DNA of 64,000 nt. Origin: Dehalococcoidia bacterium. Lineage in GTDB: Bacteria; Chloroflexota; Dehalococcoidia; UBA6926. The notes below the pieces were generated by a model, which made no database searches, was not told the origin of the DNA, and saw only the letters and a program-made list of their open reading frames with translations. Positions 1 to 56,614 of this stretch are shown in pieces. The stretch covers positions 256,595 to 320,594 of the forward strand of contig CAXXET010000007.1 in the NCBI GenBank assembly GCA_963666115.2. The letters run 5' to 3'. A program made the position numbers and the translations under genes. Each line of letters begins with the position of its first letter. Position 1 is the first letter of the stretch.

Positions 1-5
1 GCGCC

Positions 6-22900: not shown

Positions 22901-24713
22901 GGACTGTGCCCGTGTTGAGGGCAGAGGGCTTGGAATTCGCCGTCCGCATGGTGAAGTTGGCGCCGTTGTTGGCCTGCAGGTAAATCTCCATCTCGTCGAT
23001 GGCGCTGGAAACCTTGTAGAGGCCCTGGTGGCTGCCCAGCGACTCGCGGGTTATCCCCGCGCCGATGTTGCCGAAGTCGATCGGGTCCGTGCTGCTGGCG
23101 GTGTCGCTGCCGCCAGCGGGGGTCGTTCCGACGGTGCCGCCGTCAGAGACGCGCGTCCAGTCGGTTGTTCCGACCTGACGGTAGCGGAGATCGTAGTCGT
23201 TGATGGCGGAACCTCCGTTAGACGGAGCGGTCCACTGCGCCGCAAGCTGCGCGTTGCCGGTAGTGAGGGCGGGGGCTGCCGGGGCGGCGGGCGCGGTAGG
23301 CCCGGTCGTGGTGAAGGACGTCCCCGCCAGTTCCGTCGAGCACGACGAGTCGTGGTAGGCGCTGTAGGAGTAGGAGGTGTTGTTAGAGAGGCTCCCAAAG
23401 GTGTGCGTCGCGCCGCTGATGGCGGATGAGCACGTTCCGGCGGGGGCGGGCGCAGTCTTCTTCACGTGCCAGGCGCCGCTGTGCCCGGCGAGGGTCAGGG
23501 TCGCCTCGGCTCCGGTGATGCTGCCGGCAGTGAGCCAGCCGGGGACGGGCGCGTTGCGCCACTGGCTTGTCGCGCCGCCGTTGGTGGCCTGGACGGCGAC
23601 GGTGGCTGCGGCGGTTGAGGTGACGGTATGGGTGTGGGTGGTTGTCGAATGGTCGGTGGCGATGCGCTGCCACTGGCCGCCGTCCGCGCGGTAGTTGACG
23701 TTGTAGGCGTTAGCACCCTGGCCGGCGTTCCACGTTGTGGTGACTGTGCCGCCGTCCGTGCCGTGCGTGGTGGAGGTGACGGCACGGAGGCCGGAGACCG
23801 CGCAGACGGACGGCGGCGGGACGGTGGCGGAGTTGGTCCAACCGCTTTCACCGGCAGCGTTGCGGGCGCGGACGGCCAGGGTGTAGGTCTTGTTCTTGCT
23901 CCACTTGGCGAAGTTCCAGGACGTGTACGTCACGTTGCTAAGGGCGCGCTTCCAGGTCTTGCGCTTGTTGGTGCTGACGTTCACGTCGTAGCCGGTTGCG
24001 CCGGACACGGGCGTCCAACTGACCGACATCGCTTCACAGGCGCGGCTGAGAGAGACGTTGGCGGGCGCGGACGGTGGCGGATCGGCAGGAACCCAGGGGG
24101 CGCTCGCCGGGGAGTTGCGCCAGTTGCCCCACAGCGTGTTGCCGCCGTCGGTCTTCCCTGCGCGGACGCCGACGACGTAGGGATACTGGTTATCGACGTT
24201 GATGGTGATGCTGGTGGACGAGTGGGCAAAGGCGGCAAGGCTCCAACTCTTCTTGCCGTCCGAACTGTAGGTGACGTGGTACTTGTCCGCGCCAACGACG
24301 GCGGGCCAGGAGGCGGTTATCGAGCCGTCGCTGCGGCTGATCAAGACATAGCTGACGCGAGCGGGCGGGCCGCTGGGATTGTTGGAGGCGGAGTTCCGCC
24401 ACTGGCCCCAGCCGTGCTCGTTGCCAGCGCGGACGCCGACGACGTAGGCCTTCGACGTGTCGATGCCGGTGATGTCGATGGATGTTGTGGCGTGGTCGTA
24501 GGCGGCGAGGCTCCAGCTCTTCTTGTTGTCGGAGCTATAGGTGACGTGGTACTTGGTGGCGCCGGCAGGGGCGTCCCACGATGCGGTGAGGGTCGTGTTG
24601 GCGCGGGTGACGGTGACGCTCGCCACCTGGCCGGGGGCTGATTGGGCGACGGCGGGCGAGGCGGCCACTGCCATGGCTGCCACGAGGATAGCCAGAGCGA
24701 TAATGCTACGCAT
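16956..24713 (-). CDS. 2,585-aa secreted fibronectin type III repeat protein with one GLUG-like module
   Basis: Sec signal [24 protein letters not shown] and GGAGG RBS. Many FN3 repeats (W..P...G..I..Y...Y...GL..G..Y.V.VRA.N..G.G.WS). [22 protein letters not shown]...GGLVG.N repeats...[11 protein letters not shown]. No C-terminal TM. Confidence 0.9.
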
Positions 24714-27700
24714 CCGTTTCCTCCGTGGTCGTGGCCCGGCGCGCGCGCCTGCGGCGGCGCAGAATGATGAACAGGATCAGGGCGAGGAGCAGCAGGCCCG
24801 CGCCGGCGATCACGAAAGGCGCGTAGTCACTCGCGGCTATATCGTCCACCACGTCAGGCAGCGAGACGGCGGTCGCCACGGGAACGGCCGTCGCGGACTC
24901 GTCCACGGGCGCCGGCATGACGACGAGCGCGTAGACACTGAAGCGCGTGAGCACGGAGACCGTCCAGGAATTGCCTGAGCCGTCGACGGCGCAATCGTGC
25001 CGCACGCGCCCCCATCCCTCCGCCTCCACGCGGTACACCCGGGCGCGGTTGTCCGTGCAGGCGGACTGGTCGTTCTCCGGCAGCTTGAACCACAACTCCA
25101 CGCCCTTCAGCCACGTGGTCGGCGCGAGAATATCCGTCCCCGCGATATACGTGTTCACCTCGACCGCCAGGTTGACGAGATTATCCGCAACAGGCGCCTC
25201 GCTCTCGAGGGAGCCGGTGTCCAGCGTCCACATCCGGACTTCAAGGAGTTCCGGCGCGGCCCCCGCCGGGATGATCAGCCGCGCCCGGCCGTCCGGCGTC
25301 TCGATCACCGTCGCGCTGTCCGGCCACACAAGGTCTCCTCCCTCGGACACCTCAGGCAGCGGCGTGGGCGTTGGCGTGGGCGTCGGCGACGGTCCCGGCG
25401 TGGGCAACGGCAGAGGTGTTGGCGTGGGCGTCGGCTCCGGCGGCGGCTCCGGTGTTGGGGTGGGCGTCGGAAGCGGTGTCGGCTCCGGCTCGGGCTCCGG
25501 CGTGGCTGCGGGCGGCGGTGCAGGCGTCGGCGCAGGCGTCGGCGTTGCCTGCGCGGCAGGCGCGGCGGTGGGCGGAGGCGGCAGGACCCTGATCCTCACG
25601 ACGTCCGTGGCGTAGCGGCCCGCCTCGACGTGTATGCCCACGGTCTGGACACGCAGCTCGAAGTGCAGCACGATGGCGTTTTCCACCGTCGGCGCGAGGA
25701 ACGTGGCCGTCAGGGACGACGCGTTGTTGATGGTGACGGTGGCGGGCGGGTTGTCCCCGGTCTGCGTCCACGTGTATTCCAGCGACAGGCCGGGCTTCGT
25801 GTCGACGCCCGGATAGTTGGCCTGGCCTGACAGCCTCACCGTGTCGCCGCTGTACTCGGACCGGTTGTTGCCCGCATCGACGAAGGGGCGCGGGTTGACG
25901 ACGACCCGATTGATGGCGATGCCGTGGTAGCCGGGGTCATGGCTGTACGCGGTGTGGGCCATGATGACTTCGCCGTGAGAGCCGTCGCGGTTCCGTCCCG
26001 CCGTCACGGTGACGGTCTGCGCCGTATCCCAGTTGCTGGGCGTGAACGTGAGCGTCGCCGGACTGACCGTGATGTCCGGATCGCCCGTCTTCACGACCCT
26101 GACAACCACGTCGCTCTCCGGCGCATGCGTTGCCAGGACGACCGTATACGTGGTCGACTCGCCCTCTTCGAGATTGTCGATGCTCGACTTGGAGACGACA
26201 GTGCCGCGCGTCCTGACCATGGCCGGCCCCGCCGCCGTGCTCTCGCCCGCGGCGTTGACGGCGCGGAGTTGGAAGGCATAAGTGGACAGCGGATCGAGGC
26301 CGGTGAGCGTGAAGCCGCGCGCGCCTGAACCGCCGGAGATCGTCGTCCACGTCGCGGACGCAAAGTCGAAGCTGTCGCAGTCGGTCGCGTCGCATCCTGT
26401 CCCCTTGGCCTGCAGGTACTCCCACCGGCTGATGACGGAGTCCGCCGGAACCGGATCATCCCACGTGAACCTGGCCATGCCCCACTTGGGCAGCGTGAAC
26501 GCGAAGTTCCTGGGCGCGGCGGGCCTGATGAGGGCGGTGTTGTCCGTCGTCAACTGGTTCAGCGTCGGCTCGCCGTTCCCTGCCGCGTTCACCGCCCGCA
26601 GTTGGAAGCTGTAGGACATGCCCTTCTTGAGGCCGGTCACCGTGTAGCTGGTGCGGACGAAGACGGCCCGCACCTGGAAGTCATAGGTCGTGCCGGACGT
26701 GAGATTGTCCACCTGGTGGCTCGTCTTGTCGACGCACGTGCTGTCGTCGGCGGCTGTGCAGATGTCCACCCACGCGCCGTACTCGGTCGCCGTGCTCTCC
26801 TTCATCCGGTACTGCCACTTGAGGAAATGGGTGGTGTCGGCGGGCGTGCTCCACGTCAGCGTGACGCTGCTGCTGGCCGTCGCGCTGCCGTCAAACGCGG
26901 ACGTGCCGACGGTGGATGACACGTTCTTCCAACCCGTGTTCGTGGGAGGCGTGGCCGTCGCCTCGTCCAGCGCCGGATGAACCACCGGGCGAATCTCAAA
27001 GTCGCAGAACGCGCCCGCGGGCGAGCACGTCGCCGTGTACGACGTCGTCGTATCGCCGCTGTTCGATATATCCGTCCAGCCGAACGGGTCGGTCGCCGGC
27101 CAGTCATCCGCCGCCGCCTTCGTCCGGTACTGGTACTTGACGATGGTGTTGTCCTTCGGATCAGTCCACGAGAGCGTCTCCTCGTGGTTGGTGTCGGAGA
27201 ACGTCGTGAAGTTCCACGTCTTGTACACGACGAGCGGGAGGACATAGCTCAGCCCGTCCTGGATCACCGGCGCAACCTGGAAAACGTAGTCCGTATCGAC
27301 GGTCAGGCCGGTCGCGGTGTAGGACGTGGTGGTCGCGCTGCTGCCGGCGATGTCCGTCCACGCGCCAAAGCTCCCCGTCCCCGACTTCTGCCGGTACTGC
27401 CACTTGATGATCCGGGCGTTCTGCGGGTCGCTCCACGCCAGCGCGATCTGGTTGGCGCTGCCGATGTTGGCCAGGCTCCAGCTGCCCACCGCGTCGAGCG
27501 TGACCTGCATCGCATCGTTCGGCTTGAACGCGCGCGCCTGGAAGGTGTACTCCGTGTTGTTGGTCAGGCCCGTCACCCGGTACTGCGTGGTGGTTGCCGT
27601 GCTGTCCGGGATGTCCGTCCAGCTTCCGTAGGCGCCCGTGCTCTTCTGCCGGTACTGCCACTTGGTGATCGCGCTGTCATTGGGATCGGCCCACTTCAGG

Positions 27701-28668
27701 AGAACCGCCTTGTCCTCGGCGAGGGCGACCAGGCTGCCCTCCATCGTCCGGTACTGGTAGGTCGTGATGGACGGGTCGTTCGGGTTATTCCACGTCAGCG
27801 TGGCATTGCTGATGTCCACCACCACGTTGGCCGTGAACTGGTCGGGCATCTCCGGTATCAGGACGATCTCCACCGCGTCAGACGGCACGCCTCCGTCCAC
27901 GGCGCTGCTCGCCACGTTCGCCGCGCGCACCTGGAAGCGGTACACGTCATTGGCCAGGCTCGTCCTGACGTACGACCTGGTATCGCCGTCGCTGCTGGGA
28001 ACAGCCCGCCACTCCGCCGCGTTCAGCATGGTCGTCCATTCCGTCTCCGTCGTGTCCGTGTCGCCGCTCGCGGCGCGCCAGTCCCATGACGTGATGGACG
28101 GATCCGCCGGGGATGGCGGCGCCCACGTGAGCGTCACGTTGAAGTCGTTTGTGCGCGCCACGTACGTATCGCTGAGGGTCAGGCTGGCGGGCTTGCCCGG
28201 CGTGAGCGTGACGGTGGCGGTGGCGGACGCCGCGCCCTTGCCGGACGAGTTGACCGCGCGCACCTGGAACTGGTAGCCGCCGGGGCCGGTGACGCCGAAG
28301 GGGATGGTGTAGCTGCGGGTGTTGTTCTTGCTGCCGGGGATGGCCGTCCAACCGGCGCTGTTGAGGTCCTGACGCTCGGAGGTCGCGCGGTACTCCCAAC
28401 TCAGGATGGAGGAGTCGGCAGGCGAAACCGTCCAGGCGACCGAGACCTGGAAGTTGTTGGTGGCCTGGAGGTACGCCTTGCTGGCGGTCAGCGTTGCGGG
28501 CGCGGCAGGCTTCGCGGGCAGCGAACTCGTCGCGGTGGCCGACGCGGGGCTGATGCCGGCCGGGTTCACCGACCGGATCTGGAACTTGTACGCGGTGTCG
28601 TCGCTCAGGCCGGTTGCCTCATACGACGTGGCGGACGCGCTCGCGCTGATGGTCGTCCACGCCTTCAC
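24706..28668 (-). CDS. C-terminal segment of the giant protein (FN3, Calx-beta-like, PKD-like, Pro/Thr linker, TM anchor), as-sequenced ORF
   Basis: Begins mid-FN3 (KAWTTIS..SYEATGL). VDAG...[17 protein letters not shown]-like unit, PT/PE linker, TM helix [19 protein letters not shown]. Confidence 0.8.
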
Positions 28669-31600
28669 GCCCGACGCCGTGTGGTTGGCGCCGGGTCTTC
28701 ACGCCCTCAACCTGGTAGGTGAACGACGCGCCGCTGGTCAGATTCTTTGTGAATGTATGCGAGTTGAGCGTTCCGACGGCGCAGGGCGACGCGCAGGTGA
28801 TATTCGTCCACGCGGAGCCGTCCGTGCTGTACCGCCAGCCGGTGATGCCGCTGTCATTGGGATTCGTCCACTCCAGCGTGATCTCCTGCGTGGCGACGCC
28901 CTTGCCGACGATGAAGTCCGCATTGCTGCCCGTCCAATGCCGCATCTGCCACTTGGTGATGGACGGGTAGTTCGGGCTTGTCCAGGAGAGCGTCGCCTTC
29001 TGCTGCCCCGCCGCCGAGCTCAGTCCCTTCGGTTGGAGAGGCGTGGTGGCGGTGGAGGCGACGTCCGAGCCCGGCCCATACACGTTGTTGGAGTTCTTGG
29101 CGCGCACCCGGAACGAGTATGTCGTGCCGGTGTTCAGCCCAGACGTAATGCTGTGCGAGTTGGTGTTGGCGCCGCTGTTGGAAATGGGCCGTCCAATTGC
29201 CCCAGTTGCCGCTGCCCTTCCTCTGGCGGAACTCCCAACCCGTGATGTTGTTGCCGGTGGTCGGTATTGCCGTCCACGACAGGCTGACGTTCGTGCCGGT
29301 TGCGGTGGCGGTTAGGTCCTGAGGCTGCGGCGGGACGGCTCTCGGCGTCTGCGACACGCTATCAGTCGCAACGCCGGTTCCCGTCCCGTTGACGGCGCGA
29401 ATTTGGAAGTTGTACGGCGTGTTGTTGGTGAGCTGCGTCACCGTGTACGAGGTCGTGGTCGCCTTGCTGTTCGAAATGGTAGACCAGTTCGATCCGCCAT
29501 CCTTGCTGTACTGGTAGCCGGTGATGGATGAGTCGTCCGGGTCGTCCCACGTGAGAACCACCCGCCGGTCTCCCGGCTCGGCCGTCAGGCCCGTCGGCTT
29601 GGCCGGATACAGCGTGGGCGAGGACGCGTCCGATGCCGCGCCGTTCCCCGTCGCGTTGACCGCCCGGATTTGGAACGTGTACGCCGTGCCGTTGTCGAGG
29701 CTGCTTACCGTGTAGGTGGTGGTGGACGCGCTCGTGCTCATTTGCGTCCAACTGCCGTAGGTGCCCGTGGTCTTCTTCCGGTACTGCCACTTGGTGATGC
29801 TGGAGTTGTCCGGGTTGTCCCAGCCAAGCGTCGCCTGCCCGTTGCCGCCCGTTGCCGTGAAGTTGGTGGGCTTGGCCGGATACTGGACGAACTTGGACGA
29901 CGTGGCGGCATCGCCGACGCCATTCGGCCTGGCGTTGTTCACCGCGCGCAGCTGCGCCTTGTACGACTTCCCGTTGGCGACAGATGTGATGGTGTGAGTC
30001 GTGCTGTTATGGTTGCTGCCGGAAATACTCTTCCAGCCCTCGCTCGTCGATGGCGTGGTCGTCACGGTGTCCAGCGCCGACCCGGCGCCGGTCGTATAGG
30101 GCCGCACCTCGAATTGGTGCGACGCGCCGTTCGTCAGGCTCGTCACCGTGTGGGTCGTCGTGGTCGCGCTGCTGCTGGAAATGTCCGCCCACGATTCCCA
30201 ATTCTCCGTGCCCTCCTTGTAGCGGTACTGCCACTTGGTGATGTTGGAATTGTTGGGATCGGTCCAGTTCAGCACAACCTGCGCGTTGCCCGGCACGGCC
30301 TCCAGTCCGCCCTCGCCGGCCTCCCAGTAGCGGTACTGGTAGCGGTAGCCGGTGGTGCTGGTGTCGGTGGTCTTCGTCCAACGGAGCGTCGCCTGGCCGT
30401 CGCCGCCCGTTGCCGTGAGGCCGGACGGCGTGGACGGCCGGGCCAGCGGAATGACCGTGGCCGTATCGGAAATGGGGCTGGCACCCGCGTCGTTCTTTGA
30501 CCGAACCTGGAACGTGTACGTCGTGTTGTTGGTCAGGGAACCGACAGTGTGCGTCGTGTAGCCGGGCGTCTGCTCGGTGTTGACGGTAACCCAGTCGCCG
30601 TAGCTGCCGCCGGACTTGTAGCGGTACTCCCAGCTATGGAAGTACTTGTGGCCGGTGTTGAACCAGCGGAGGAGCGCGCTCCCGTCACGCGAGGTCGCGT
30701 TCAATTGCGTCGGCTTGTTGGGCGCGCTCGCCACCGGAACGGCAGTCGCGGAGTCCGACGCCGGGCCCGCGCCGCTGACGTTCACCGCGCGAATCTGGAA
30801 CCGTACCTTGGAGCTGTTGTCCAGCCCCGTCACCGTGTGGCTCGTTGTGGTCGCGCTGCTGGCGATCGCCCGCCACTGGCCCCACGATGCCGACGGATGC
30901 CCATAGCGCAGCTCGTAGCGGGCAATCGAGGCGTTGTTCGGGTTCGTCCACGACAGGCTAACCTGCGTGTTGCCGCCCGTCGCCGTCAGTCCGGTTGGCT
31001 TGCCCGGCAGCGCGCGCGGCGTCGCCGACTTCGCATCGGACTGCGTGCCGTTGCCGGTGCCGTTCACCGCGCGAATCCTGAACGTGTACTCCGTGTCGTT
31101 GGTGAGGCTGCCAATGGTGTACGTCGTGGTGGACGCGCCGCTGCTCGGTATCGTCGTCCAGTTGCCCGTGTCCTGCTTGTACTCCCAGCTCGTAATCGAG
31201 GAGTTGTTCGGATTCGTCCACGTCAGCTTCACCTTTTGGACGTTCGGCGTCGCCCTGAAGCCCGTCGGCTTGGCGGGCGCGGCCACCGGGGTCGCCGTCT
31301 TCGCATCGGACGACGCGCCGTTGCCGCTGATATTCACGGCGCGGAGCCTGAACGTATACGTCGTGTTGTTCGTGAGGCTCGGGACGGTGTACGTCCTGGT
31401 GGTCGAGTCGCTGCTCGGGACGGTCGTCCACGTGCTGCCCCACGCGCCCGAGGTCTTCTGCTGGTACTGCCAGCTCGTGATCGTGGAGTTGGAAGGGCCG
31501 GTCCACCTCAGCACGACCTGCCCGTTCCCGCCCATCGCCGTGAACCCTGACGGCGCGGCCGGCTTCGCCTTCGGCGTGGACGTTACGCCCGCCGACGCAG

Positions 31601-34600
31601 TGCCGTTCCCCGCGTCGTTCACCGCGCGCACCTTGAACGTGTACGACGTGCCGTTGGTGAGATTCGTGACGGTGTAGGTGGTGGTGGACGCGCTGCTGGA
31701 CGGCACGGCGGTCCAGTTGGTTCCGTTGTCCGTGCTGTACTCCCAGCTCGTGATCGTGGAGTTGTTCGGATTCGTCCACGTCAGCGTCACCTGCCCCGCG
31801 CCCTCCACCGCGGTCAGTCCCGTCGGCGTGTCCGGGGTGGGCAGGGTGGGCGTGACGTCTGACGACGGGTCGGACGCCGGGCCGCTGGCCGATGCGTTGA
31901 CCGCCCGTATCTGGAAGTTATACGTCGTGTCATGCGTGAGCCGTGTCACGGTGTGCGTCGTCGTCGTCGCGCCGCTGGATGGGATGGTCGCCCAGCCCCC
32001 GCCGGACGCCGGCGTCACGCTCACTTCAGAGAGCGCCGTCTCCGGCGTGGTATTCTTCACCGCCCGCACCTGGAACCGGTACGCCTGGCCGTTCTTCAGG
32101 CCCGTCACCGTCCGCGACGTGGTCGTCGCCCCGCTGGACGGGATGGTCGTCCAGATCTTCAGCCCGCTCACCGTCACGGCCGTGTTGCTGCTCGTGAGGC
32201 CGCGAATCTGGTACACGCCCAGCGCGTTCTGCGTATACGTCCGCGTGAAGCTGTGCGAGTTTATCGTCGTCAGCGTGCATGAGCCCGTGCACGGGATATC
32301 CGTCCAGAGCGTGCCGTCCGGGCTGTACTGGAACTTGGCGATGCTGGAGTTGTTGGGGTTCGTCCACTCCAGCGTGACGGCGGTGGACGAGTTCTGGCGG
32401 CTGATGAAGTCGCCGAGGTTGCTCGTCCACTCGCGAATCTGCCACGACGTGATGGTCGAATCGTTCGCGTTGTCCCAGCCAAGCGTGGCCGACGCATTGC
32501 CCGGGAGAACGTGCATCCCGCCCGTTCCGACCGTCCACTCCCTGACCTGCCAGCTCGTGATGCTGGTATCGTTCGGGTCCGTCCAGGTCAGGTCGGCCTG
32601 TCCCGTCGTGTATAGCACGACGGGTGTCTTGGTCGTCTTGGCGACTGCCGTGAAGCCGGACGGCTTGGACGGCGCGGTGCGCGCATCTGCCCCGCTCGAT
32701 GCAGCGCCGTTCCCTGCGTCATTCACGCCCCGCACCTTGAACGTGTAGTCCGTGGCGTTGGCGATGCCGCTCGTAATGGTGTAGCTCCGCGTTGAATCGC
32801 TCGTGTTGGTCATGGCGACCCAGTTCGTGCCGTCGTCCGTGGTGTACTCCCACGAATTGACCCACCTGGCGTTCGATGCCTTCGTCCACGTTAGCGTGGC
32901 CTGCTCATTGCCGCCGCTGGCGGTCAGCGAAGCGGGCGCCTCCGGCACGCCGGACACCGGCGTCGCCTGCGCCGCGTCGGACGCCGCGCCGTTGCCGATG
33001 AGGTTCACCGCGCGAACCTGGAACTTGTACGCGGAATTGTTCGTCAGCCCCGTCTTCGTGTACGAGAGCGTCGTCGTTCCCGTCGGCGTGATCGTCGTCC
33101 ACCTGCCGTAGGACGCGGACGCCAGCGCGTAGCGGAACTGCCACGAGGTGATCGTGCTCGTCGGCTTCGTCCAGCTCAGCGTCACCTGTGTATTGCCGCC
33201 CGTCGCGCTCAACCCCGTCGGCTTGGCGGGAACCGTGTACGGCGTCGCCGACACCTCGTCCGAATCCGCGCTGTTGCCGGACGCGTTCGCGGCGCGAATC
33301 TTGAACGTGTACGCCGTGCCGTTTGTGAGTCCGGTGACGATGTGGGACGTGAGAGTAGTGACGTTGGCGGAGACGGAGCGCACCTGGAAGTAGTGGCCCG
33401 CTCCGGCGGTCAGGCCCGTCACCCTGTAGCTCGTGGTTGACGCGCTGCTGCTCGGGATGTCCGTCCACGCCCCGAACGACGTGGAGGAAGAGCCCTTCCG
33501 GTACTCGTACTTCTCGATCTTTGAGTCGCTCGGGTTGTCCCAACTCAGCAGGACGCTGCCGTTGCCCGCCACCGTCTTGTACGCGTTCAGGTGCGTGGTC
33601 AGCTTCTTGATGTCCTGCCAACTGCCGTACGTGCTCGAGGTCTTCTGCGCGTACTGCCACTTCGTGATGCTCGAATCGCTCGGGTCTGTCCAGTTCAGCG
33701 TCGCCTGCGTATCGCCCGCCGTCACCGTGAAGTTCACGGGCTTGGCGGGCACCGAAACCGGCGTGGCGGCCCTGACGTTGGACGACGCGCCGCTGCCGTA
33801 GCTGTTCTTGCCCCTCACCGCGAAGCGGTACTCCGTGCCGTTGGTCAGATTATCGACGGTCGCCGTTCGTGTCGTGCCCGTGCTGCTGGCGACGTTGCCC
33901 CAGCCGCTCCACGTCCACGTCGTCGTGTTGTTCCTCGTCGAACTCGTGGCGATGCGGTATTGCCAGCTCGTTGCCGCCGGCGTGCCGCCGTACGTCCACG
34001 TCAGCCTCACCTCGCCGTCGCCCGGTGTTGAGCCGGTCAGCGTCGGCGCGGCGGGAACCGGCCCCGGCGTTGCCGTCGCCGCAGTCGCCGATGCGCCGTT
34101 CCCCGCGCTGTTCACCGCGCGAACCGTGAACGAGTACTCCGTGCCGTTGGTGAGCTTGGCGATCCTGACCTTGGCGGCGGTGATGGCGAAGCCGGACGTC
34201 GTGCTGACGCTCACGTTCTCACTGGGCGCGGACGCCAGCTTGACCTTGACGCTCTGGGGCTGCTTCCAGGTGGCGGCGGGGAAGGTGATTTGGGCGGGAG
34301 TGAAGATCACGTTGTCCTGCGGCGTCAGCCTCACCGTCAGGTCAACCGATGGCCGCTGCAGGTTTGCCGGGACGCTCACGGAGATGGTCTTGTCCGTGCT
34401 CCAGTCGGTCGTGGTGAACGCGGCGGCGCGCGCCGTCACCAGCGGGAGGACGATGTCCTTCCAACTGCCGGTGTCCACCCGAACCTGCTGCTTCAGGACC
34501 GTCGTATCCGCAGGGTTCGTCCATGTCAGGTCGACGTATTTGTCCCCGGCCTCCGCCGTCAGGCTCGTCGGCGCGGCGGGCACAGGCACCGGCGTCACGG

Positions 34601-37600
34601 TCACCTTGGAGGACGCCGTGCCGTACAGGTGGCCGTTCACGGCGCGAATCCTGTATTCATGCTCCACGCCGTTGGTCAGCCCCGTCACCGTGTAGGACGT
34701 CGTGTCCTTGTCGCTGTCCGGTATCGCGCGCCAGACGGCAAACCCTGTCACAGGCTTGATCTGCACGTACTCAAAGCTGGCGGCGCCGGCCCGGGCATGG
34801 GTGTCCGGCTCCGCGAATTTGTCCCACGTCAGCAGGACGGACTGGTGCTTGGCCGTTGCCTTAAAGCCGGTGGGCGCAAGCGGCGCTCCCTGCGGCGTGA
34901 ACTTAACCGTCGCCTCCGCCCCGGTGCCGCTCGCGTTGAAGGCGCGCACCTTGAACGTGTATTCCGAGCCGTCGTACAGCCCAGAGTTCCGCGTCGTGAA
35001 GCCGTTGAGTTGGAAGCCGGACTCGATGTCCACGGTGACGTTTTCACTGGGCTGGGCCGCCAGCTTGACGGCGACGTTCTGGGAGCCGCCCCAGTTCCGC
35101 CCGCCGGGGAACGTGAGGATGGCCGGCGTGAACACCACGCCGTCCTGCGGCTTCAGCCGGACCCGCAGGCTCGTTGTGGGCCGGTTGCTGTCTGCGTCCG
35201 TGATCGTCACGGAGACCGTCTGCGCCGTGTTCCAGTTCTGCGTTGTAAAGGTGACAGTCGCTGCCGTCAGATCGATGGTGTGGTCCGTCCACGTCGTCGT
35301 TCCCGCGCCAAGGCTCAGGCCGGTCTGCACCTTCGTGATCGTCGTGTCCGTGGGCGCGTCCCAGTAGAAGACGTTCTGCGTGTTGTGAACCTGCGCCTCC
35401 AGGTTCGTCACCGCAGAGGGCAGCGCCAGCGGAGTCTCAGACACCTTCGCGGACGCCGCGCTCGTCTGCCCCGCCGTGTTCACCACCCGCAGGTAGTAGT
35501 CATACGCCGTGCCGTTCGTCAGCGTTGCCGCCGTCGTGTGCGACGTGGTCGTTGCGCAGTTGGAATCGGCCGTGCTGTTGCAGACCTCAGTCCACGGGAT
35601 GGCGACCGTGGACGTGTTGTCCTTCGCCGTCACGCGATATTCGTACTTGTCGATGGTCGAATCGCTCGGGTCGGTCCACGTCGCGTACAGCGAGGAATCC
35701 CGCTTGGCCAGCGCGACGCCCGTCGGAGCGGGCAGCAGCCGCGGCGTCGCCGTCGCCCCGTCCGAGGCCGGCCCCGCCTGGCTGTTCGCGTTCACGCCGC
35801 GCACCTTGAATGTAACCGCTGTGCCGTTCGTCAGCCCCGTCGCCTGGTACGTGTAATTCGTCCCAACCGTGGTGGGCGTCACCGCCGACCACGTCCCGCC
35901 GTTGTCCTTGCTGTACTGCCATGACGTTGCCGTATTCGTCGTCGGCCACGTCAGCGTCGCCGTCGCATTCTCGCCGGAGCGCGCCGCCAGCCCCGTCGGC
36001 TTCGCCGTCAGTGCCTTCGGCGTGGCGTACTTCACGTCCGACGCCGCGCCGAGCGAGTTGTGAATCCGCGCCCGCACCTGGAACGCGTACAGCCTGTTGT
36101 TCGTCAGGCTCGAAACAGTATGGGCAATCGTCGTCGCGCTGCTGCTTGAGATTGCCGTCCAGCCCGCCGTCGCCGACGGCCTTGCCGTTCCGCCGCCAAT
36201 CGCGGCCCCTGCCGCTAGCGGCCTGCCCGTCGCGTCGCCCAGGACGGTGTTCACCAAGTTGTCCGAGCTGTCGATCCCCCGCACCTGGAACGTGTACTGC
36301 GTGCCGTTGGTCAGGAGATTTACCGTAGTGACGTTAAGGTTCGGGCACCTGGGGTTGCCAAACCAGTGATAGGTGCAAATGGTGTTCCATGATCCATAGG
36401 CCCCGGTGGTCTTGTAGCGATACTGCCACTTATGGACGCTCGATGCGTTGTTGGGGGTGGTCCAGTGCAGTTCGACTTGCCCATTGTAGGCGAGAGTGGT
36501 CAGGCCACCCGTCGTATTGGAGTTCACCGCCCGCACCCGGAACTTGTACGTCCGGCCATTGGCCAGGGGCGTGCCGTTCGTTTCGGTTGTGATGGTGTAG
36601 GAGTTGGTGGACGCGCTGCTGTTGGGGATGTCCGCCCACACGCCGTAGTTGTTCGCTGTGCGCTCAGCGCTGTACTGCCACTTGGTGATGCCCGTCGTAT
36701 CGCTCGGGCTGTCCCAGGAGATTGCAATCGACCGGTCTCCGGCCCACGCCGTCACGCCGTTCACGGGCGCGGTCTGCCGGTACTCATAGCCTGTGATATG
36801 GCTGTTGGCCGGGCTTGGCGTTGCCCACGCCAGCGCGACCGACTCCACCTTGCCCGCCGCGGTGAAGCCGGTGGGCTTGGCCGGGGCGGCGCGCGGCGTG
36901 ACGGCGGTCGTCGTGGTCGAGTTCGGGCTGTTGCCCGTCTCATTCACCGCGCGAATCGTAAACGTGTACGCCGTGCCGTTCGTCAGCCCCGTCACGAGGA
37001 ACGACGTTGTCGTGGAGCAGCCGGAGTCGGCCAGCGCGTTGCAGATATCCGTCCAGTTCGTCTCCGCGTTCTTCTTGTACTGCCACTTGTCGATGGTCGG
37101 ATCGGCGGGGCTGGGCGCAGTCCACGCCAGCGTCACGTTCGTATCCCCCGGCGTGGCCGTCAGCCCCGTCGGCTGCGCGGCCTGCCTCGTTCCGTACGCC
37201 CATTCGGTGGAGGGGCCCGCGCCGGATGAGTTGACCGCCCTCACCTGGAAGGAATACGCCACGCCCCGGACCAGGCCGGTTGGGCTGTGCGAGACGGTGG
37301 TGGCGCCGCTGCTCGTGATGTCCGTCCAGCCCTCCGTCGTCGATGGCGTCGCCGTCGCGTCGTCCAGCAGCCGCGTGTACATCGGCCTGATCTGGAACGT
37401 GTAGAACGAGCCTGCGGCCAGGTTCGTCGCCGTATACGACGTCGTCGTGGGATTGCTGCCCGCGATGCCCGTCCACGCGCCCGTCGACGTCGCGCCCGTC
37501 CTGACGTGCCTGTGAACTTGGTAGCTGTCGATATAGTCCTTGTCCGGGTCGGTCCACGTGATTGTCTTGGAGGTTGTGCCGTTGGCCAGCGCGGTGAACT

Positions 37601-40600
37601 CCCACGTAATTGGCGTCGGCTGTGACCCGACGTACACAAGGCGGCGCACCTGGAAGGTGTAGTGTGTGCCGGCGGTCAGCGCGCCTGACGTCCACGTCGT
37701 GGTTTCCCAGTTCGTGCTGATAAGCGTCCATGCGCCGTACGAGCCCGCGCCCGTCCGCTGCCGGTATTCCCACCTGTACGTATTCGACGACTCAGCCTTC
37801 TGCCACGTCAGCGTCACCTTGTTGCTGCTGTCCAGCACGGCGTACCTGTACGTGCCGACGTTGGCCATGGCGGCGAGCGGCGGGTTGCTCGTGTCGTGCG
37901 TCCGCTCCCGCACCTGGAACGTGTGCTTCACGCCGTTCGTCAGCCCCGTCACCGTGTACGACGTGTTGGAGAGCTGCGGCATGTTCGTCCAGTTGCCGTA
38001 GGTCTCCGCCCCCGCCTTGTACCGGTACTCATAGTTGCCGACCTTGGGATCGAGCGGGTTGTCCCACCACAGGAACACCTCGCCGTTGCCCGGCGCCGCC
38101 GAAAGCGTCCCCTCCTGCACGCGCTGGCGCACCTGGTACTTCGTGATGGTCGGAGCGGTGGGGGCGGGCGTCGACCACGCCAGCGCCACTCCCGTCGCGC
38201 TCCCCGTCGCCGTGTACCCCTTCGGCTGGTGCGGCTTCGGCGGCGGCTTCGGCGTCGCGGAAATCGACGCGACCGGGCTCCTGCCGCCGGCGTTCTTGGC
38301 GCGAAGCTGGAACGTGTACAGCGTATTGTTCGTCAGACCCGTCACGGTAAGCGCCGTCGCGTTGCGCCAGATGCCGGAGGAGACGGCGACCGTCACGTCC
38401 TCCGTGGGCGCGGTCGCCAGCGTCACGCTGACCGCCTGCGTGGTGTTCCAGTTCTGCGTGGTGAACGTCAGCTCCGACGGCGAGAACGTCACGCCGCTCT
38501 CAACAAGCGTGACCTTCACCTCTGCCGCCGGCGCGGCGGCCAGTTGCACGTTCGCCGTCTGCGCCGTGCTGTAGTTCCCGCTGTTGAACGTCAAAGTGTC
38601 CGCGCTGGTCAGCGCGATGGGAACTTCCGCCCAGTCGCTCCAGCTTCCCTGGTTCCCGCTCTGCTCATAGCGGTATTCGTACTGCGTGATCGTCGCGTCG
38701 GCCGGATCCGTCCAGCCCAGCGAAACCTGCGTGTTCCCGCCCGTGGCCGTCAGGTCGTTGATCCTGGCCGGCGCCAAGCCCTCCAGCATCAGCGTCGCCG
38801 TGTACGAATCGTCCGAAACGTTGTTGCTTGAGTCCACGACGCGGTAGGTGAACGTCGCGCTGCTGAAGCTGTCCGAGGGATAGAAGTACAGGGTCTTCCG
38901 GGTAGTGCTGATCTGGAGCTGGTCGTTCGGCGCGTACTGCCCGGCGGTGACGGGCGTCACCGTATCGCGGCACAGGTGGTGATTGGGCTTGTTGCGGCAT
39001 GCCGGCTTGCCCGCGAACCGGCCCTTTTGGACAAGCTGCAGCTGGCCTTGCGCCGACGCCGGCAGCGTCTCGATGAGAACGTAGGACAGCTTGTCTCCGT
39101 TCTCATCCTCGTACCGGAACGACTGGCTCACCGCCATGATCGTCCGGCTCGACGAGCTCTTCGCCTTCACGTAATGCGTGAAGCTCGTGCTCGTCGGCGG
39201 TTTGTTGTTGTCCGTCTCCGTCGCCACAACCGTCGCCGTCACGCCGCTGAAGTCCGCGCCCGTCGTCGTGGCCGTATGCAGGATATTCACCACGTCGTCC
39301 ACGCCGTCCGAGTCCTTCGTCACCGTCACCGTCACCGTCTGCGCGACATTCCAGTTGCTCGTGGTGAACGTCAGGCTCGACGGCGAGAACGTCGGGTTGG
39401 TCGGCGTCGTCGTGGACGAGCCTGTCCCGCGCGTCAGGTTCAAGGTCACGCTCGCGCTCGGCTGCACGGACAGCTTCACCGTGTACGTTCCCGTCGCCGA
39501 GCCGCTGTTCGGCTCCTCCACCGCAAGCGTCGCCCCCGAGAACACCAGCAGCCCCTTGTAGGTCAGCGTTGTTTCGCTCGACGACAGCCCGTGGTCGCTC
39601 CCGCTCTTCGTCCCGTACACCCGGATGTCGTACGTCGTGCCCGGCGTCAGGCTGGCCGCCGGAATGTCCGCGCTGGTGGCGTTCGCCTGCCCGGCGACCA
39701 CCTGGTTGGTGGACGTGTAGATTTCCGTCCCGGACTTCCACTCCACCACGTAGCCCGTCGCCCCCGTAAGCGTGCTCCACGATACCGTCGCCCCGCCCGC
39801 CGGGTTCCCGTGCGTATCCGTCTTCTGCGCCGCGCTGACACCCGTCACCTGCCCAAGCTCGTCATCGTCCGTGATGGTCAGCGCCGGGTTGGCTCCGGCG
39901 CCCTTGACCACCCACTTGGAGTTCGTCGGCTGCGCGAGCAGTGTCAGGGTCGCCGAGCCGTTGATCAGGTCGCTGTAATCGTTCTGCGCCGTCAGCGTCA
40001 CCGTGCCGGTGGTGGCGCCTACGGCGAGGGTGATCGTCGGGCTGCTCAGGTTGTATGCCTGGCGGTACACGTTAAGATCGACCTTGTACCCGGTGGTCAC
40101 GTTGCTCGAGTTCTTGGTGATGGACACCCGCGTGGTCGCCGACGTGGGCTCTGCCAGGAACACCACGCTGATGTTTTGCGTCGTGTCCCAGGTGCCGCTG
40201 GTGCCGCCCGTGAACGTCAGGTACTTGGGCGTGACCTCCGGCTCGTGGACGCTGAGGCGCGTGAAGTCCACCACCACCGTCTTGCCTGTTCCGGGGTCTG
40301 CGGCCAGCTTGACGGTGGCGGTCTGCGCCGTGCCCCAGTTGCCGTTGTTGCCGGACGTGAAGGTGAGGAAGCCGCTGGACTGGTTGGTGCCGCCGACGGT
40401 CAGGCCGTCCGGCGCCTGCGGCAGCGTGATCACGATGTCCTCGTCCCAGTCCTCCGTCATCGTCGCCGTCACCGTCGACGTCGTCGCCCCGCCCACCTTC
40501 TCATAGATCGTCGTCGGGCTGGCCGTCAGGTTCACGACGGGGCGCTGGTCCGCGACGGTCAGGTTGTCCGTGGAGCCGGCGTGCTTGGAGACGGGGTACT

Positions 40601-43600
40601 GGCTGGACGTGCCGAAGTCCCACGGGTCGTCGTTGTTCGTGTCGTTGTTGAAATCGAGGTCCCAGTCCACGTAGATGTCCGTGCCCGTGCCATACCCGGT
40701 GGGCGTCTGTAGCTCGGCGGTCGTCTTGCTGGAGCCGTTGTCGTTGCCGCAGCCGGTCACCCCCAGGGTGTCGCCGTTGAAGTAGGAGTTATTGATCTGG
40801 GCTCCGTCCTGCTTTTGGGCGATGATTCCGCACCTGCTGGCGGGGTTGGGGGTGGTCCCGCTGAGCGCGCCGGTGGCGTAGCTGGCGGTGATCGCGCTGG
40901 GCGCCTGGTTGTCGGTCGTGCCTGTGATGAACCCAACGAGGGCGCCGCGATAGACGTTGCCCGTTGCGCCGGTTGCGCTGACGTCGCCCCGGGCGTAGCT
41001 CGCCCTGATGTCCGAGCCTCGATACGACGCGCCGATCAGCCCGCCGGCATAGGCGTCGCCGGTATCGGGCGTGCCTGACTTCGCCTTGGCAGTCACGTCG
41101 CCCGCGGCCCAGCTTGCCGTCACGTTCGTGTCCGGGTAGTTGGTGAATGGCACCTCGCCCGTGAGACCGGCGAGGCCCCCCGCGTAGACGCGCGTCGCCT
41201 CCGTGGAGGTGGTCGCGTCCGCCTCCACGTCCGCCCAGGAATAGCTTGAGAGGATGTCAGCGTCCATGATCCGTCCGACCAGCCCGCCGGCGTAGGTATA
41301 GGTCCCGGTCGCGGTGACCTTGGCCTTCGCCGTCACCGTGCCCGTCGTATAGCTGCGCGTGATGTCCGTTCCGCTCCTGCCGGCGAGCGCGCCGGCGTAC
41401 ACGTCGCTGGACGCGCCGCTGCCGCCGGTGTTGTCGAACGTGATGTCCACGTTCTCCAGCGCGACGTGCCAGACCTCGTCGTCGGCGCTGTTCAGGTAGG
41501 CGAAGAGGCCGACGTAATTGCCCGTGGTCCAGTTCTGGAACAGGTTGCTTATCGTGTACGGTCCGCCGTCCCCGGTGGAGTCCGTGTCCATGTTGCCGTC
41601 GAACCCGCCCGTGTACGCCGTGCCGGCGGTGCTGCCAATGGGGTTCCAGCCGCTGCCGTTGTTCCAGTACGTGTCGCCAGTATTCGCGCCGGTGGGATTG
41701 TCGGCGGTCGGCGTGCTGTCGTTGGTGTTGAAGTCCAGGTTGGCGCGCAACTCGTAGCCGTTGCACGTATTGGAGACGCAGCCCATGCTGGGCGCCGCGG
41801 ACGGGTACGCCAATGCGTAGCTGGCCGTGCTTCCGCTCGCCGCCGTGCCGTCCGCGTCCAGGTCATACCGGATCGCGTTCAACTGCAACAGGCTGGACAC
41901 CTCGATCTGCCCGTCGTCGTCGATGTCGTAGTCGATGCCCGCGCCGACGTTCAGCGTGGCGTACGGGCTGTCATCCTCGCCGGACGCCGACGGCACCGCC
42001 GTGACGCGCGTGTTGTAGAGCGAGCCGGCTGTGCTCGTGACGGTGTAATGGCACTTGGTGTTGTTGGAGACCCGGCAGCCCGTGTCCGAGTTGGCCACCG
42101 TGACGACCGTGCTCCACGTGCTGGACGTGGACAGCTTGTGCTGCACCTTGTAGCTGGCGACGTCGGTGCCCATTCGACCCCAATTGATCTCGAATTCGGT
42201 GGCGTCCTGGCGCGCCAGGACCAGGTTGGGCGGCGCGGAGATCGAGTCGTCGTCATTGATCGTAAACGTCGGTGTAGCAGACGCGAAGCTCACGCGCGGG
42301 TCGCTGGAACCCGCCCCCGTCGCCAGGTTCACCTGCTTGTTCGCCGCGTTCACCCGGTTGTTCACCGCCGTCAGCGACACCGTTGCCGTCGTTGAGCCCG
42401 CCGTGATGGTCATTGTGCTGCTGCCCAGGGTGTAGGCCGCGTCCGTCGGCGGCGTCACGACCACGTCGTTCAGCAGCTTCTCGCTGAGCGTGGCGGTGAT
42501 GGTGGTGGCGTTCACGCGGCTCGGCGTGCTGAGCGCGCGCTCCCAGATCGGCGTCGGCGTGGCGGACATGGTGACGGTCACGCGCTGGTTGGCGGGCGTC
42601 AGCCCGTGCTTGAGCACGGGGTACTGGCTTGCCGTGCCGAAGTTCCACCCGTCCTGCGTCCCCGTTGTCACGGAATCCAGGTCAATGTCCCAATCCTTGT
42701 AGATATCGTTATTGCCCGTGCCGTACTGCCTCGGCGTCGTCAACTGGCTGGCCGTCTTGCCCGTGCCCTGTCCGGTGGCGGTGATGCCGGACAACTCCGT
42801 GTCCCAGTAGCCGTCCGTCGTCGTGCCGGACGTGTTGCTCGCTACCAGCCCGCCCTTGGTCTCCGTCACCCCCGTCGTCGCCCCGTCCTTGTCCGTCGTC
42901 GGCGCCCCCGTTGAGTAGCTCGCCGTGATGTTTCCGCCCGACTGGAGCGCCACGAGTCCTGCGACGTACAGCGTGACGGACGTGTTGCTGCTGCCCGCGT
43001 TGGACGCCTTCGGAGCCGCGTAGGAGTACGCCGCCTTGATATCGCCGCCGTTGTGCTCGCCGACGAGCCCGCCCGCGTAGGCGACCCCGTTGTCGTCCGA
43101 TACCTTGGCGTTGACGATGCCGGTTGAGTAAGACGCGATGACGTTCCCCGCCTTGTGGTAGCCGACCAGCCCGCCCGCGACGGCGTGCAGCGTGCCGTAC
43201 TGCGCGTTCTGCTCCGCCGTGACGGTCGCGCGCGCGTAGCTGGAGATGATGTCCCCCGCCTCCTTGTACCCCACAAGCCCGCCCGCGTGGGAGGCGAACG
43301 TGGACTGCGTGGAATTGCCGGCCTTGGTGACGGCCTTGACCGCGCCGCGCACGGAACTGCCCGTGATGCTTCCCGCCTTCTGGTAGCCCACAAGACCGCC
43401 CGCGTACACCTCCGGCTGCGGATCCTCGGTTGACGTGCTTTCCAGCGTGACGGACACGCCCGTCAGCGCGACGTCTTGGATGACCGCGCCCGTATCGATC
43501 CGCCCGAACAGCCCCGCGTAGTACTTCGTCCCTGTCGTCGTGGCGTCCCGGTCGATGAACAGGTTCTCAATCGTGTACTGCGTGCTGCCGTCCTTGCCGT

Positions 43601-46600
43601 GGAACTCTCCCGTATACGCCGTGCTGCCGCCCCCGATGGGATTCCACCCCAGCCCGCCGTTCCAGATGATGGCGTCCTCATTGGAGTCCTTCGTGTTGTC
43701 ATTGTCCAGGTCAACGTAGTCGTTCGTATCGACGTCGCCGTCGTCGTCCGTGTCAAAGTCAAGGTTCGCGGTCAACTCATAGCCGTCGCACGTCGGATTG
43801 CCCGTGGTGTTGCTCGCGATCGACACGGCGGACTCATGGCATCCCATGTTGTCCTCCGCGCTCGGGAACGCGGCTGCGTATTGCGTGCTGTAGTCGTACT
43901 CGCCCGTGTCCGTATAGTCCCCGTCATTGTTGGAGTCATACTTGTCCGCCGCCCCGTCCCCGTCCAGGTCATAGCGAATCGCGTTCAGCTTCAGCAGGCT
44001 GTCAATCTCGATCAGCCCGTCGTTGTCCGTGTCATAATCGCCCGTCCCTGAACTCGACTTCGTCGTCGCGCTCACCACGTCCGACGCCGGCGAATCCAGT
44101 TCGCCCGTCTTCGTGGCGATCACACGCACGTAGTACTTCGTGTTGGCCGTCAGGGCAGGGGTCCTGTAGTTCGTCGTGCTGCCGCTGTCCACCGTCCCCG
44201 TCGTGGATGAGCCGAACGCGCTGTCATCGTCGTACTCCACCTTGTACCCCGTCGCGCCCGTCACCGGTGCCCAGTCCGCCCGTATCTTCGTGCCGTCAAC
44301 CGACAGCCTGACGCCCGTCGCCTTGGACACGTTGTCATCGTCGTTAATGGTGATGGTTTCGGCGGAGGTGGGCACGAAAATGGCGGCGATGTATGGAGAA
44401 TCCGTACTCGTGGCGCTCAGGGACACGTTGCGCGAATCCGGGGTTGTCTGATCCACAGAGTCGTCAACCGCAGTGAGCGTTGTGGTTCCGGGGGTGGTGG
44501 TCCCGGCGGACAGGGTAATAGTCGTGCTGGTGAGGGTGTGGGTGGCGTTGTTGCCGGTGACGGGTGTGGGCAGCGTGACCGTCACGTCGTCCTCCCACGC
44601 CCCGCTCAACGTCGCCGTGATCGTGGACGTGTTCACGCGGCTCAGCCCCGTGTCCGCGCGCTCCCAGATTGTCACAGCCGACACCGTCATCGAAACCGTC
44701 GCCCGCTGCTTGCTCACCGTCAGGCCCGTGAAGTCCAAAACCGGGTACTGCGACGCCGTCCCAAAGTCCCACGGGTCATCGTTCCCCGATGCCCCGTCCA
44801 CGTTCACGTCCCAGCTCGCGTAGATGCCCGTCTCCGACGTCGGCGTCTGCAGCGCGGACGTCGTCTTCCCCTCCGGCGCGTCCGTGCCCGCGTCGTCCGC
44901 GATGCCGGACGTCGTCGTGTCCCAATAGCTGTTCGTGACGGTTCCGCTGCCGCTTCCGGTGAAACCGCCCGTGTTGCCCGTGCCGCCTGTCCCCGTCGTC
45001 GCGGTCGCCGCGCCGATTGAGTAGCTCGCCGTGATCGTCGCGCCCGATGCGTTCTCACCCGCCAGCCCGCCGGTGTCCGTGTTCAGTCCTGTCGCCCCGA
45101 CGTCGCCTGTTGCGTACGACGCCGTGATCGTTCCCTTGTTAACGGCAGCCAGCCCGCCCGCGTGCGAATCGTTGTCCGCGTTGCCCGTCGTGTCCGTCCC
45201 CCGGTCCGCCGTCACTGCCCCCGTCGCGTAGCTCGCCGCGATCGTGTCGCTCGTGTCGTTAAGTCCAACCAGCCCGCCCGCGTAGCCCTCGTTCGAGTCG
45301 TGCGACGAGGCCGTCACCGTGGCCCGCGAATACGCCGCGCGAATTGTCCCGTCGTTCCAGCCGACCAAACCGCCCGAGTAGGCCTTCTTGTCCGTTCCCG
45401 TGCCCGTCCGCTTGGCCGTCACCTCGCCGAGCGACCACGACACCGTAATCGTGCCGCTGTTCTTGCCCGCCAGCGCCCCCGCGTACACCGAGTCCCCGGA
45501 CGTGCTGCCCGTCACGTCCACGCCCGTCAGCGCCACGTGCTTGATCTCCGCCCCGCTCCCGATCACCCCGAACAGCCCCGCGTACGACGTGCCGGACGTG
45601 GACGACAGGTTGATGGTGAGGCCGCTGATCGTGTACGGCCCGCCGTCCTTCTCCCCGTTCGGGTCCGTGTTGTCCGTTGTGGACGTGTCGTTGTTGCCGT
45701 CGAAGTCGCCTGTGTACCCCGTCGTGCCGTCTCCAATCGGCACCCACCCCGCGCCGGTGTTGTACGGCGACGTGTTCAAGTCCAGGTTCGCGGACAACTC
45801 GTAGCCCGTGCATGCCGGGTTCCCCGTGTTGTTGCTGGAGATGGTGAATACGGACTCGTTGCATCCCATGTTCGCTTCCGCGCTCGGGAACGCCGTGTCA
45901 TACGCCGTCTGGTTCGAGGCGTCGTCGACCACGCCGTCGCCGTTTAGGTCATAACGCATCGCGTTCAGTTGCAGGAGCGTGTCGACCTCGATAAGCCCGT
46001 CATTGTCATCGTCATAGTCGCCCGTCCCCGCGACGCTGCTCTTCGGCGTGATGCTCACCACGTCGGACGGCGGCTCGTCCGCCCCCGTCTTCGTCGGCAG
46101 CACGCGGATGTAATACGTCGTGCCGACCGTCGCGCCCGTTATCTTGGCGTTCAGCGTGGAGCCGCCCGTAATCGCCCTCGTCGACGGGCTGGTCCACGCG
46201 GTGTTCGACGTCGTATTCCACTGCAATTCGTAGCCCGTGGCGCTGGTTACCTGGTTCCAGTGAACCTGGATGTTGGCGCCGTCGACGGAGGCCCTCACCC
46301 CCGTCGGCTTCGTCAACTCATCATCGTCCGTGATGGTGATGTTGATGTCCGTCCCCTTGACCGCCCATTTCGTATCCGTCGGGTGCGTGCTCTGGGCGAG
46401 CGAGATCACCCTCGCGTCGGGACTCTCATTCGTGAAGTTGTTCACCGCCGTCAGCGTCGCCGTCCCCGTCGTCGATCCCGCCGCGATCGTGATCGTCGTC
46501 GCGCTCATCGTGTACGCCGCGTTCGTCGGCAGCGTCACCACAACCGCCTCGTTCCACGTGCTGTCGAGCGTTGCCGTCATCGTTGACGTCGTGTCGCGCG

Positions 46601-56502: not shown

Positions 56503-56614
56503 AGCGCGACCTCGCCGGTTTAAACCCCGGTTTGATCCGCGCAAACGGGTATACTCCTCCCCACCAGAGGCTGATTCCAATTGACAAGCATAGTGGGGCG
56601 GCGGTGATATAGGG

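Follow-up and report, generated by a model that had tools for sequence, protein, structure and literature searches.

A 64,000-nucleotide stretch of DNA from a Dehalococcoidia bacterium (GenBank assembly GCA_963666115.2, contig CAXXET010000007.1, positions 256,595 to 320,594), hereafter referred to as the window, carries on its minus strand a giant gene of 31.9 kb whose product is rich in fibronectin type III (FN3) domains. Eleven of these domains, hereafter hosts H1 to H11, are split in the loop between strands C and C′ or between strands C′ and E, and the second half of each is found only after other sequence has intervened. The product is likely to be a secreted, membrane-anchored giant surface protein in which 11 FN3 hosts enclose complete guest domains. 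In eight hosts the guests are FN3 domains themselves.

Half-domains in bracket order

A hidden Markov model (HMM) of the FN3 domain was made from 24 full-length copies found in the giant protein and cut into an N half (strands A, B and C) and a C half (strands C′, E, F and G). The half-matches follow one another as balanced brackets throughout, with one complementary C half downstream of every orphan N half in 11 of 11 hosts (E-values about 1e-5 to 1e-18). In searches with the whole model, the HMM end of each N part adjoins the HMM start of its C part. At the three-level nest formed by H7 and H8, HMM positions 9-35 are continued by 33-89 in the outer host and 3-42 by 36-86 in the inner host, with a full match between them; other abutting pairs that surround full matches are 1-47 with 46-92 and 1-33 with 34-92. 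Excision of the insert in silico converted all 11 hosts into one full-length FN3 match each, with scores of 44.8-89.4 bits. The 28 contiguous FN3 copies score 30.0-112.2 bits (median 71.7). The excised hosts lie within this range, and the halves therefore sum to exactly one domain each. Host H10, which spans a change of reading frame, gave 69.2 bits over HMM positions 1-90 after excision.

The split lies in the C-C′ loop in H2, H3, H7, H8, H9, H10 and at the first site of H11, and after strand C′ in H1, H4, H5, H6 and at the second site of H11. Fourteen FN3 guests are distributed over eight hosts (3, 2, 1, 1, 1, 1, 1 and 3+1), H8 being both guest and host. The remaining three hosts, H1, H4 and H5, hold an insert of about 100 residues composed of two units of the pattern LTFT..NW..Q.V.V (inserts A, B and C, respectively). 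The positions of all hosts and of other features of the gene are given in Table 1.

Recent doubling in situ was considered as the origin of the nests and rejected. No host half has its nest partner as its nearest paralogue, and all identities fall within 0.36-0.66. Each half has diverged to about the same extent from all of its paralogues, and the nests are therefore old modules rather than recent local doublings.

Table 1. Features of the giant gene, with positions in the window; N and C are the half-domains of a host, NC a complete FN3 domain
Feature	Position	Strand	Description
Giant gene	24706..56580	-	one protein; start is TTG at 56580
Signal-peptide-like N-terminal segment	56413..56481	-	basic stretch, hydrophobic run, SPSFA; translation read by eye
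Frame change 1	56047..56049	-	extra T in TTT, inside second FN3 domain
H1	38229..38765	-	C′-E split; N part 38613-38765, C part 38229-38381, insert A about 38364-38666
H2	37173..38231	-	C-C′ split; N (NC NC NC) C; three tandem FN3, insert 37341-38108
H3	36000..36881	-	N (NC NC) C; two tandem FN3, insert 36174-36761
H4	34869..35417	-	two-unit beta insert B, about 34986-35324
H5	34041..34577	-	two-unit beta insert C, about 34182-34496
H6	33219..33743	-	N (NC) C; split after C′; one FN3, insert 33372-33584
H7, outer host of the three-level nest	31827..32627	-	N N N(full) C C; N part 32520-32627, C part 31827-32006
H8, inside H7	N part 32409-32519, C part 31998-32165	-	holds innermost FN3 32166-32408
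H9	29871..30434	-	N (NC) C; one FN3, insert 30048-30314
Frame change 2	29186..29188	-	extra C in CCC
H10	28498..29032	-	N (NC) C; N part 28907-29032, inner domain 28694-28906, C part 28498-28668
Frame change 3	28693..28695	-	extra C in CCC
H11	26509..27831	-	N (NC NC NC) C′ (NC) EFG; two loops of one host used
H11, N part	27733-27831	-	
H11, first guests	26941-27732	-	three tandem FN3
H11, C′ strand	26881-26940	-	
H11, second guest	26659-26880	-	one FN3
H11, E-F-G part	26509-26658	-	
C-terminal hydrophobic helix	24760..24816	-	followed by RRRRRARR tail; translation

Predicted folds and recurrence of the nests

The predicted folds of the hosts that were modeled are discontinuous. AlphaFold 2 (AF2) was run on an 11-row alignment of the 273-residue three-level nest (A1) and on a 7-row alignment of H1 with insert A (A2). 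The best A1 model had a predicted local distance difference test score (pLDDT) of 83.7 and a predicted template modelling score (pTM) of 0.74, the pLDDT of the five models being 77.8-83.7; for A2 the values were 92.7 and 0.79. Topology was read from comparison of the models with 48,161 solved chains by VIA-align, with 50 matches listed per model. The halves of the three-level nest are referred to below as N1 and C1 (outer host) and N2 and C2 (inner host), and the innermost domain as D3. Among the 50 matches listed for the nest, 42 place 83-94 residues of a single solved FN3 domain on model residues 41-43..212-223, corresponding to N2 plus C2, with Z of 11.5-9.3 and root-mean-square deviation (rmsd) of 1.6-4.3 (for example, 4n68_A, Z 11.1, rmsd 2.1, 89 residues aligned). 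The other eight place 85-99 residues on 1-4..266-273, corresponding to N1 plus C1, with Z of 10.4-9.4 (for example, 4lsd_A, Z 10.3, rmsd 2.3, 93 residues aligned). A crossed range, N1 with C2 or N2 with C1, was given by none of the 50 matches listed. In the H1 model all 50 matches listed span residues 1-4..177-183 with 85-101 residues aligned and Z of 13.1-11.6, the best being 6tpw_A (Z 13.1, rmsd 1.3). As modeled, the split hosts H1, H7 and H8 are seven-strand beta-sandwiches that superpose on solved FN3 domains.

The pairing of halves was also read from the occurrence of smaller modules. In other proteins the two-level module N2-D3-C2 is found by itself, flanked by ordinary FN3 domains, and N2 therefore pairs with C2, leaving N1 for C1. 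The junction motif of A1 is nearly invariant over its 11 rows (W68, Q69, D79 and F80). Secondary structure assignment by DSSP gave 10-11 residues for both host C strands of the three-level model, compared to 7 in the innermost domain, and the last strand of the guest runs unbroken towards the C′ strand of the host. A profile search of the PDB with A1 returned 83 matches, all to single FN3 domains or halves of them; no solved chain matching the nested module as a whole was found in that search.

Both lines of evidence bear on a preliminary description of this DNA, made from the sequence alone, which had pointed to strand motifs lying out of tandem order and had proposed recursive domain insertion with side arms up to three domains deep. 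All the motifs it quoted occur in the minus-strand translation, and each of its seven FN3-in-FN3 intervals and three intervals with other inserts agrees with the half-HMM parse. A frameshift that it had placed in the nest at 28540-29040 is present, at 28693-28695, and is one of three in the gene. The order of half-matches and the AF2 models uphold the insertion of complete domains into split FN3 hosts; as to depth, three levels are reached at 31827-32627, and three tandem FN3 guests are found in H2 and 3+1 in H11. The expectations that an fn3 HMM would give split half-matches bracketing full matches and that AlphaFold would give discontinuous FN3 folds were both borne out, the latter for two constructs, with nested and no crossed pairing. 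The bottle-brush shape that it also proposed is not supported by these data, and the role as an adhesin is conjectural.

The nested modules are conserved in other proteins. A search of 1.84 billion representative sequences with the 273-residue three-level nest returned 3,427 proteins at E<=1e-3. One of them, P0004, aligns to query residues 2-272, the entire three-level nest, in one stretch. The two-level module N2-D3-C2 is aligned in one stretch in P0011, P0043, P0026, P0038, P0105, P0028, P0146, P0022, P0051 and at a second site of P0004. A strict rule was then applied to 226 fetched FN3 proteins: the HMM coordinates of the two halves had to complement each other to within 6 positions, with one or more inner matches and no gap above 20 residues. 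It yielded 34 nests in 18 of these proteins; since the 226 were retrieved with nested queries, this fraction is not a prevalence figure. Tandem guests also recur. With F denoting a full match, the pattern N-F-F-F-C of H2 is found in P0074 and N-F-F-C in P0004. A search of genome contigs with a single protein confirmed four loci, and nests are present in three of the four, all from metagenome-assembled genomes (MAGs) labelled Dehalococcoidia; these three contain five N(1-36)/inner(7-74)/C(35-89) triplets in all.

Searches of 40 relatives from the same genus, family and class revealed partial FN3 matches only and no close homologue, and among 401 genomes of the class searched at E<=1e-15 the one match was the window's own genome (G000), with none in the 400 others.

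The innermost guest of the three-level nest (32166-32408) and the second copy in the window (28694-28906), both on the minus strand, carry a Cys-x3-Cys pair in the C′-E region. The pair is common to P0004, P0038 and both window copies and is replaced in other homologues; it may form a disulphide. The whole protein contains 46 cysteines in 10,684 residues.

Inserts, reading frame and gene context

The two-unit inserts of H1, H4 and H5 had been called Calx-beta-like in the preliminary description. This label is not supported by sequence: a Pfam search gave no match of inserts A, B or C to PF03160 (Calx-beta) at E<=10. Insert A has sub-threshold Pfam matches only (DUF4971, CBM_35_2 and DUF4402) and inserts B and C have none. 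Protein P0210 does have a Calx-beta match, at residues 206-310, but its insert-like unit lies elsewhere, at 574-612. The AF2 model of H1 has about eight strands in insert A, and both fold searches with it were filled by matches to the host FN3 domain; Foldseek listed tandem FN3 chains only, with rmsd of 16-33 Å. Searches with the insert against PDB sequences gave no match at E<=10, and against the ESM Atlas scores of 0.80-0.81, which is noise level.

The same insert recurs inside FN3 hosts of P0074, P0009, P0154, P0156 and P0159. In P0159 (residues 40-330), four LTFT..NW units lie in one FN3 host, and in P0022, P0051 and P0088 a host has a guest FN3 in the C-C′ loop followed by LTFT..NW units after strand C′. 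Free-standing LTFT..NW..Q.V.V copies are present in the window at about 39300-40540 on the minus strand, upstream of the nests and outside any FN3 host; in the long frame, phmmer matches them at residues 5232-5366 and 5578-5640. The unit occurs both alone and as a guest and is therefore a mobile module.

The giant gene has about 10,623 codons when three extra bases are discounted and TTG at 56580 is taken as start. The longest frame, 56228-28857, counts 9,124 codons between stops; frames 29311-28622 and 28698-24709 carry the gene on from there, and a fourth frame upstream (open reading frame (ORF) 55963-56580) provides the start. Every frame change consists of a single surplus base in a three-base homopolymer on the coding strand. 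For two of the three sites, Logan contigs of three public runs from three studies (X1, X2 and X3), one of which may be the window's own source, were compared with the window over 28400-29400. The base at 29186 is omitted in X2 and in a 979-base contig of X1 that otherwise agrees fully with the window over 29020-29400. Because public-run contigs lack it, this extra base is an assembly error or a strain difference. The base at 28693 is omitted in one X3 contig with a depth of 2.2 and is probably also an assembly error or strain difference. Run labels include marine metagenome and sponge metagenome, which is a hint of habitat only.

Pfam fn3 (PF00041) matches were found along the whole protein: 550 bits in 22 stretches for 28854-41063, 134.5 bits in 5 stretches for 24706-28668 and 121.2 bits in 6 stretches for 41064-56063, the gathering cut-off being 25. 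The C-terminal part of about 4,800 residues is an FN3 region that houses all nests. The N-terminal half has matches to GLUG and Peptidase_M26_N-like families. In this half (window positions 41000-55700, minus strand) about seven repeats of some 660 residues apiece were seen, each with a DxDxDG-like acidic motif, a glycine-rich GLUG or Peptidase_M26_N-like stretch, an Ig-like stretch that ends in ...TITxxDDD, and one FN3 domain.

Judged by its translation, the N-terminus resembles a Sec-type signal peptide; an FN3 domain follows this segment. The C-terminal helix and arginine-rich tail resemble a membrane anchor or a sorting signal. NCBIfam gave weak matches only, in which several anchor models of the CTERM/LPXTG type were matched over their helix-and-tail part; TIGR01167, for example, matched the C-terminus with 16.2 bits over model positions 13-33, the helix-and-tail part only. 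A motif scan of the translation found no LPXTG (LP.TG) motif. There are no GGxGxD motifs, characteristic of RTX nonapeptides, in 10,684 residues, and the Pfam results for the giant protein include no RTX family and no vWA match.

The giant gene is flanked by uninterrupted housekeeping genes, namely carA, carB (1,114 residues), a CoA-transferase and an M20 peptidase. The next gene (16956-24713, minus strand), whose start overlaps the stop of the giant gene by 8 bases, codes for a 2,585-residue FN3-rich protein. It contains two split FN3 hosts, with N matches ending at about HMM position 46 and C matches beginning at about 45. They enclose non-FN3 inserts of about 125-130 residues (22737-23159 and 19902-20339) of a kind that differs from the inserts of the giant gene. 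Farther along the window, G+C content is 0.73-0.74 at 58-62 kb and falls to 0.58 at 62-64 kb, compared to about 0.65 in the giant gene, and the many long ORFs that overlap on both strands at 57-60 kb are probably artefacts of high G+C.

Alternative explanations and related systems

How could a chain with this order of halves fold? In the arrangement that we favor, the chain would exit the beta-sandwich of a host at the C-C′ or C′-E loop, fold into one to four complete guest domains, and return to complete the host, giving a main chain of FN3 beads from which arms of 1-3 domains project to the side. The C-terminal helix would anchor this surface fibre, with the repeat-rich N-terminal half distal and the FN3 stalk proximal. 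Side arms would leave the stalk at the C-C′ pole, where the C-terminus of the host itself lies, or at the C′-E pole, and would provide further binding surface, or bulk, to the side of the axis that bears the load. Because the two ends of an FN3 guest are at opposite poles, the C strand of the host would have to extend along the whole guest, and the 10-11 residues of the host C strands compared to 7 fit this. The long C strands might thus tie host and guest into a stiff joint, as the model faintly suggests. The protein would be a cell-surface fibre, either an adhesin or a host-interaction protein, of a marine or sponge-associated bacterium.

Several points weigh against this arrangement. The folds were predicted from shallow alignments (11 and 7 rows) whose rows were chosen for the nested arrangement, and the models cover the three-level nest (H7/H8) and H1 but not H2, H3, H6, H9, H10 and H11. 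A VIA range is given by the first and last aligned residue, and discontinuity is inferred from aligned length compared to span. Branch geometry and the rigidity of the link are drawn from pTM and DSSP strand lengths only. The correction at 28693 depends on a single contig of low depth. Since no close homologue was found in the relatives searched, the protein is lineage-sporadic, and conserved context gives no guide to its function.

The half-domains might instead be debris, that is, degenerate and unfolded remnants of duplication or deletion, or repeat misassembly, in a tandem FN3 array that is possibly a pseudogene. The reading frame changes three times in the window, arrays of repeats are easily misassembled, and the N-half matches are short and some of them weak (E around 1e-3). 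Such an origin is nonetheless highly improbable given that each orphan N half has its complementary C half in bracket order in 11 of 11 hosts. Moreover, the halves are only about 40-66% identical to the nearest paralogue halves, which makes collapse misassembly unlikely, the same modules with a conserved junction are present in independent assemblies, the halves have high pLDDT in both models, and contigs of other runs lack the extra bases at two sites. If the halves are genuine, they could still fold crosswise (N1 with C2, N2 with C1) or between molecules and produce strand-swapped rods or polymers. Similar neighboring beta-sandwich domains are known to mis-pair, and AF2, run on a single chain, is blind to intermolecular swapping. 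The matches listed for the three-level model do not bear this out, as none of the 50 has a crossed range, and the stand-alone two-level modules of other proteins have no other partner. During synthesis the guest would be expected to fold first and so join the halves of its host. We consider crosswise pairing and swapping very unlikely.

A further alternative accepts the nested fold and disputes the role. The guests could serve mechanics, being shielded from tension and providing a graded reserve of unfolding, or packing, through lateral contacts that make a thicker layer or sheath. Engineered domain-insertion proteins show a mechanical unfolding hierarchy. The location of the nests in the membrane-proximal stalk rather than at the distal tip agrees with such a role, as does the fold of the guests, which is that of the stalk beads and not of recognisable ligand-binding domains. 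On the other side, the split domains of RTX adhesins project ligand-binding domains (PMC12077191), and FN3-rich proteins are discussed in papers on sponge-symbiont genomes. A purely mechanical or packing role is a serious alternative, though less likely than that of a surface adhesin or host-interaction protein.

Two groups of known surface proteins come closest to the giant protein. In RTX adhesins such as AhLap of Aeromonas hydrophila and FrhA of Vibrio cholerae, the long fibre contains an Ig-like beta-sandwich into which a complete, sideways-projecting domain is inserted, and in AhLap a beta-roll hosts a vWFA domain that hosts a further insert (PMC12077191). The giant protein shares with these split domains a beta-sandwich host that is interrupted by a complete domain and to which the chain returns. 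RTX guests have other folds (CBM, RTX roll, vWFA) and adjacent termini; they are located distally, where ligands are bound, and there are 1-3 of them per protein. In contrast, 8 of the 11 hosts described here hold guests of their own fold, in tandem runs of up to three and in one host at two loops. The nests are strung along the membrane-proximal stalk, RTX repeats number zero, and a signal-peptide-like start and a C-terminal helix take the place of the type I secretion system (T1SS) signal. The second group is formed by the Gram-positive pilus tip adhesins RrgA (PDB 2WW8) and GBS104, of solved structure, in which the domains follow one another as D1(N)-D2(N)-D3-D2(C)-D1(C); D1 and D2 are non-contiguous IgG-like folds with D3 set between their halves (PMC7893114). 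Their three-level bracket topology is identical to that at 31827-32627. RrgA has an innermost vWA domain with IgG-rev and Dev-IgG domains as hosts, one nest per protein and sortase dependence, whereas in the giant protein all three levels are FN3, eleven hosts are found in one chain, and LPXTG motif and vWA match are absent. A more distant likeness is that to FnIII-2 of the insulin receptor, an FN3 domain with a long insertion (VIA match 4zxb_E, 88 residues over chain range 593..807). Its insert, which is largely disordered and carries the processing site, is not a folded guest domain, and there is no recursion.

The degree of novelty claimed in the preliminary description has to be reduced, for RrgA and GBS104 already have an Ig-like-in-Ig-like nest with vWA and RTX adhesins already have split domains. 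The giant protein works like the RTX split domains and the RrgA nest but belongs to neither family. What is new is the combination of same-fold guests, recursion, tandem guests and two used loops in one host, and eleven hosts per chain. Full-text literature searches found no description of FN3-in-FN3 nesting.

Arrays of FN3 and Ig-like domains are usually taken as beads on a string, and annotation pipelines show split hosts as fragments. The giant protein shows that loop insertion can be used repeatedly for branching a fibre. It offers a natural test case for how neighbors of the same fold avoid mis-pairing during folding, for how force is shared between host and guest, and for the way in which uncultured marine or sponge-associated bacteria display binding surfaces on their surface proteins. 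For annotation of giant proteins it supplies a simple rule, to seek complementary half-matches that bracket full matches. Tentatively, and with rather less confidence than for the nested arrangement itself, same-fold recursive nesting with tandem guests and two-loop hosts may be a design principle that is conserved across a family of giant surface proteins of marine or sponge-associated bacteria. Were this true, the rigid head-to-head joint would be a new way to branch a beta-sandwich fibre, in which guests would be shielded from force along the chain.

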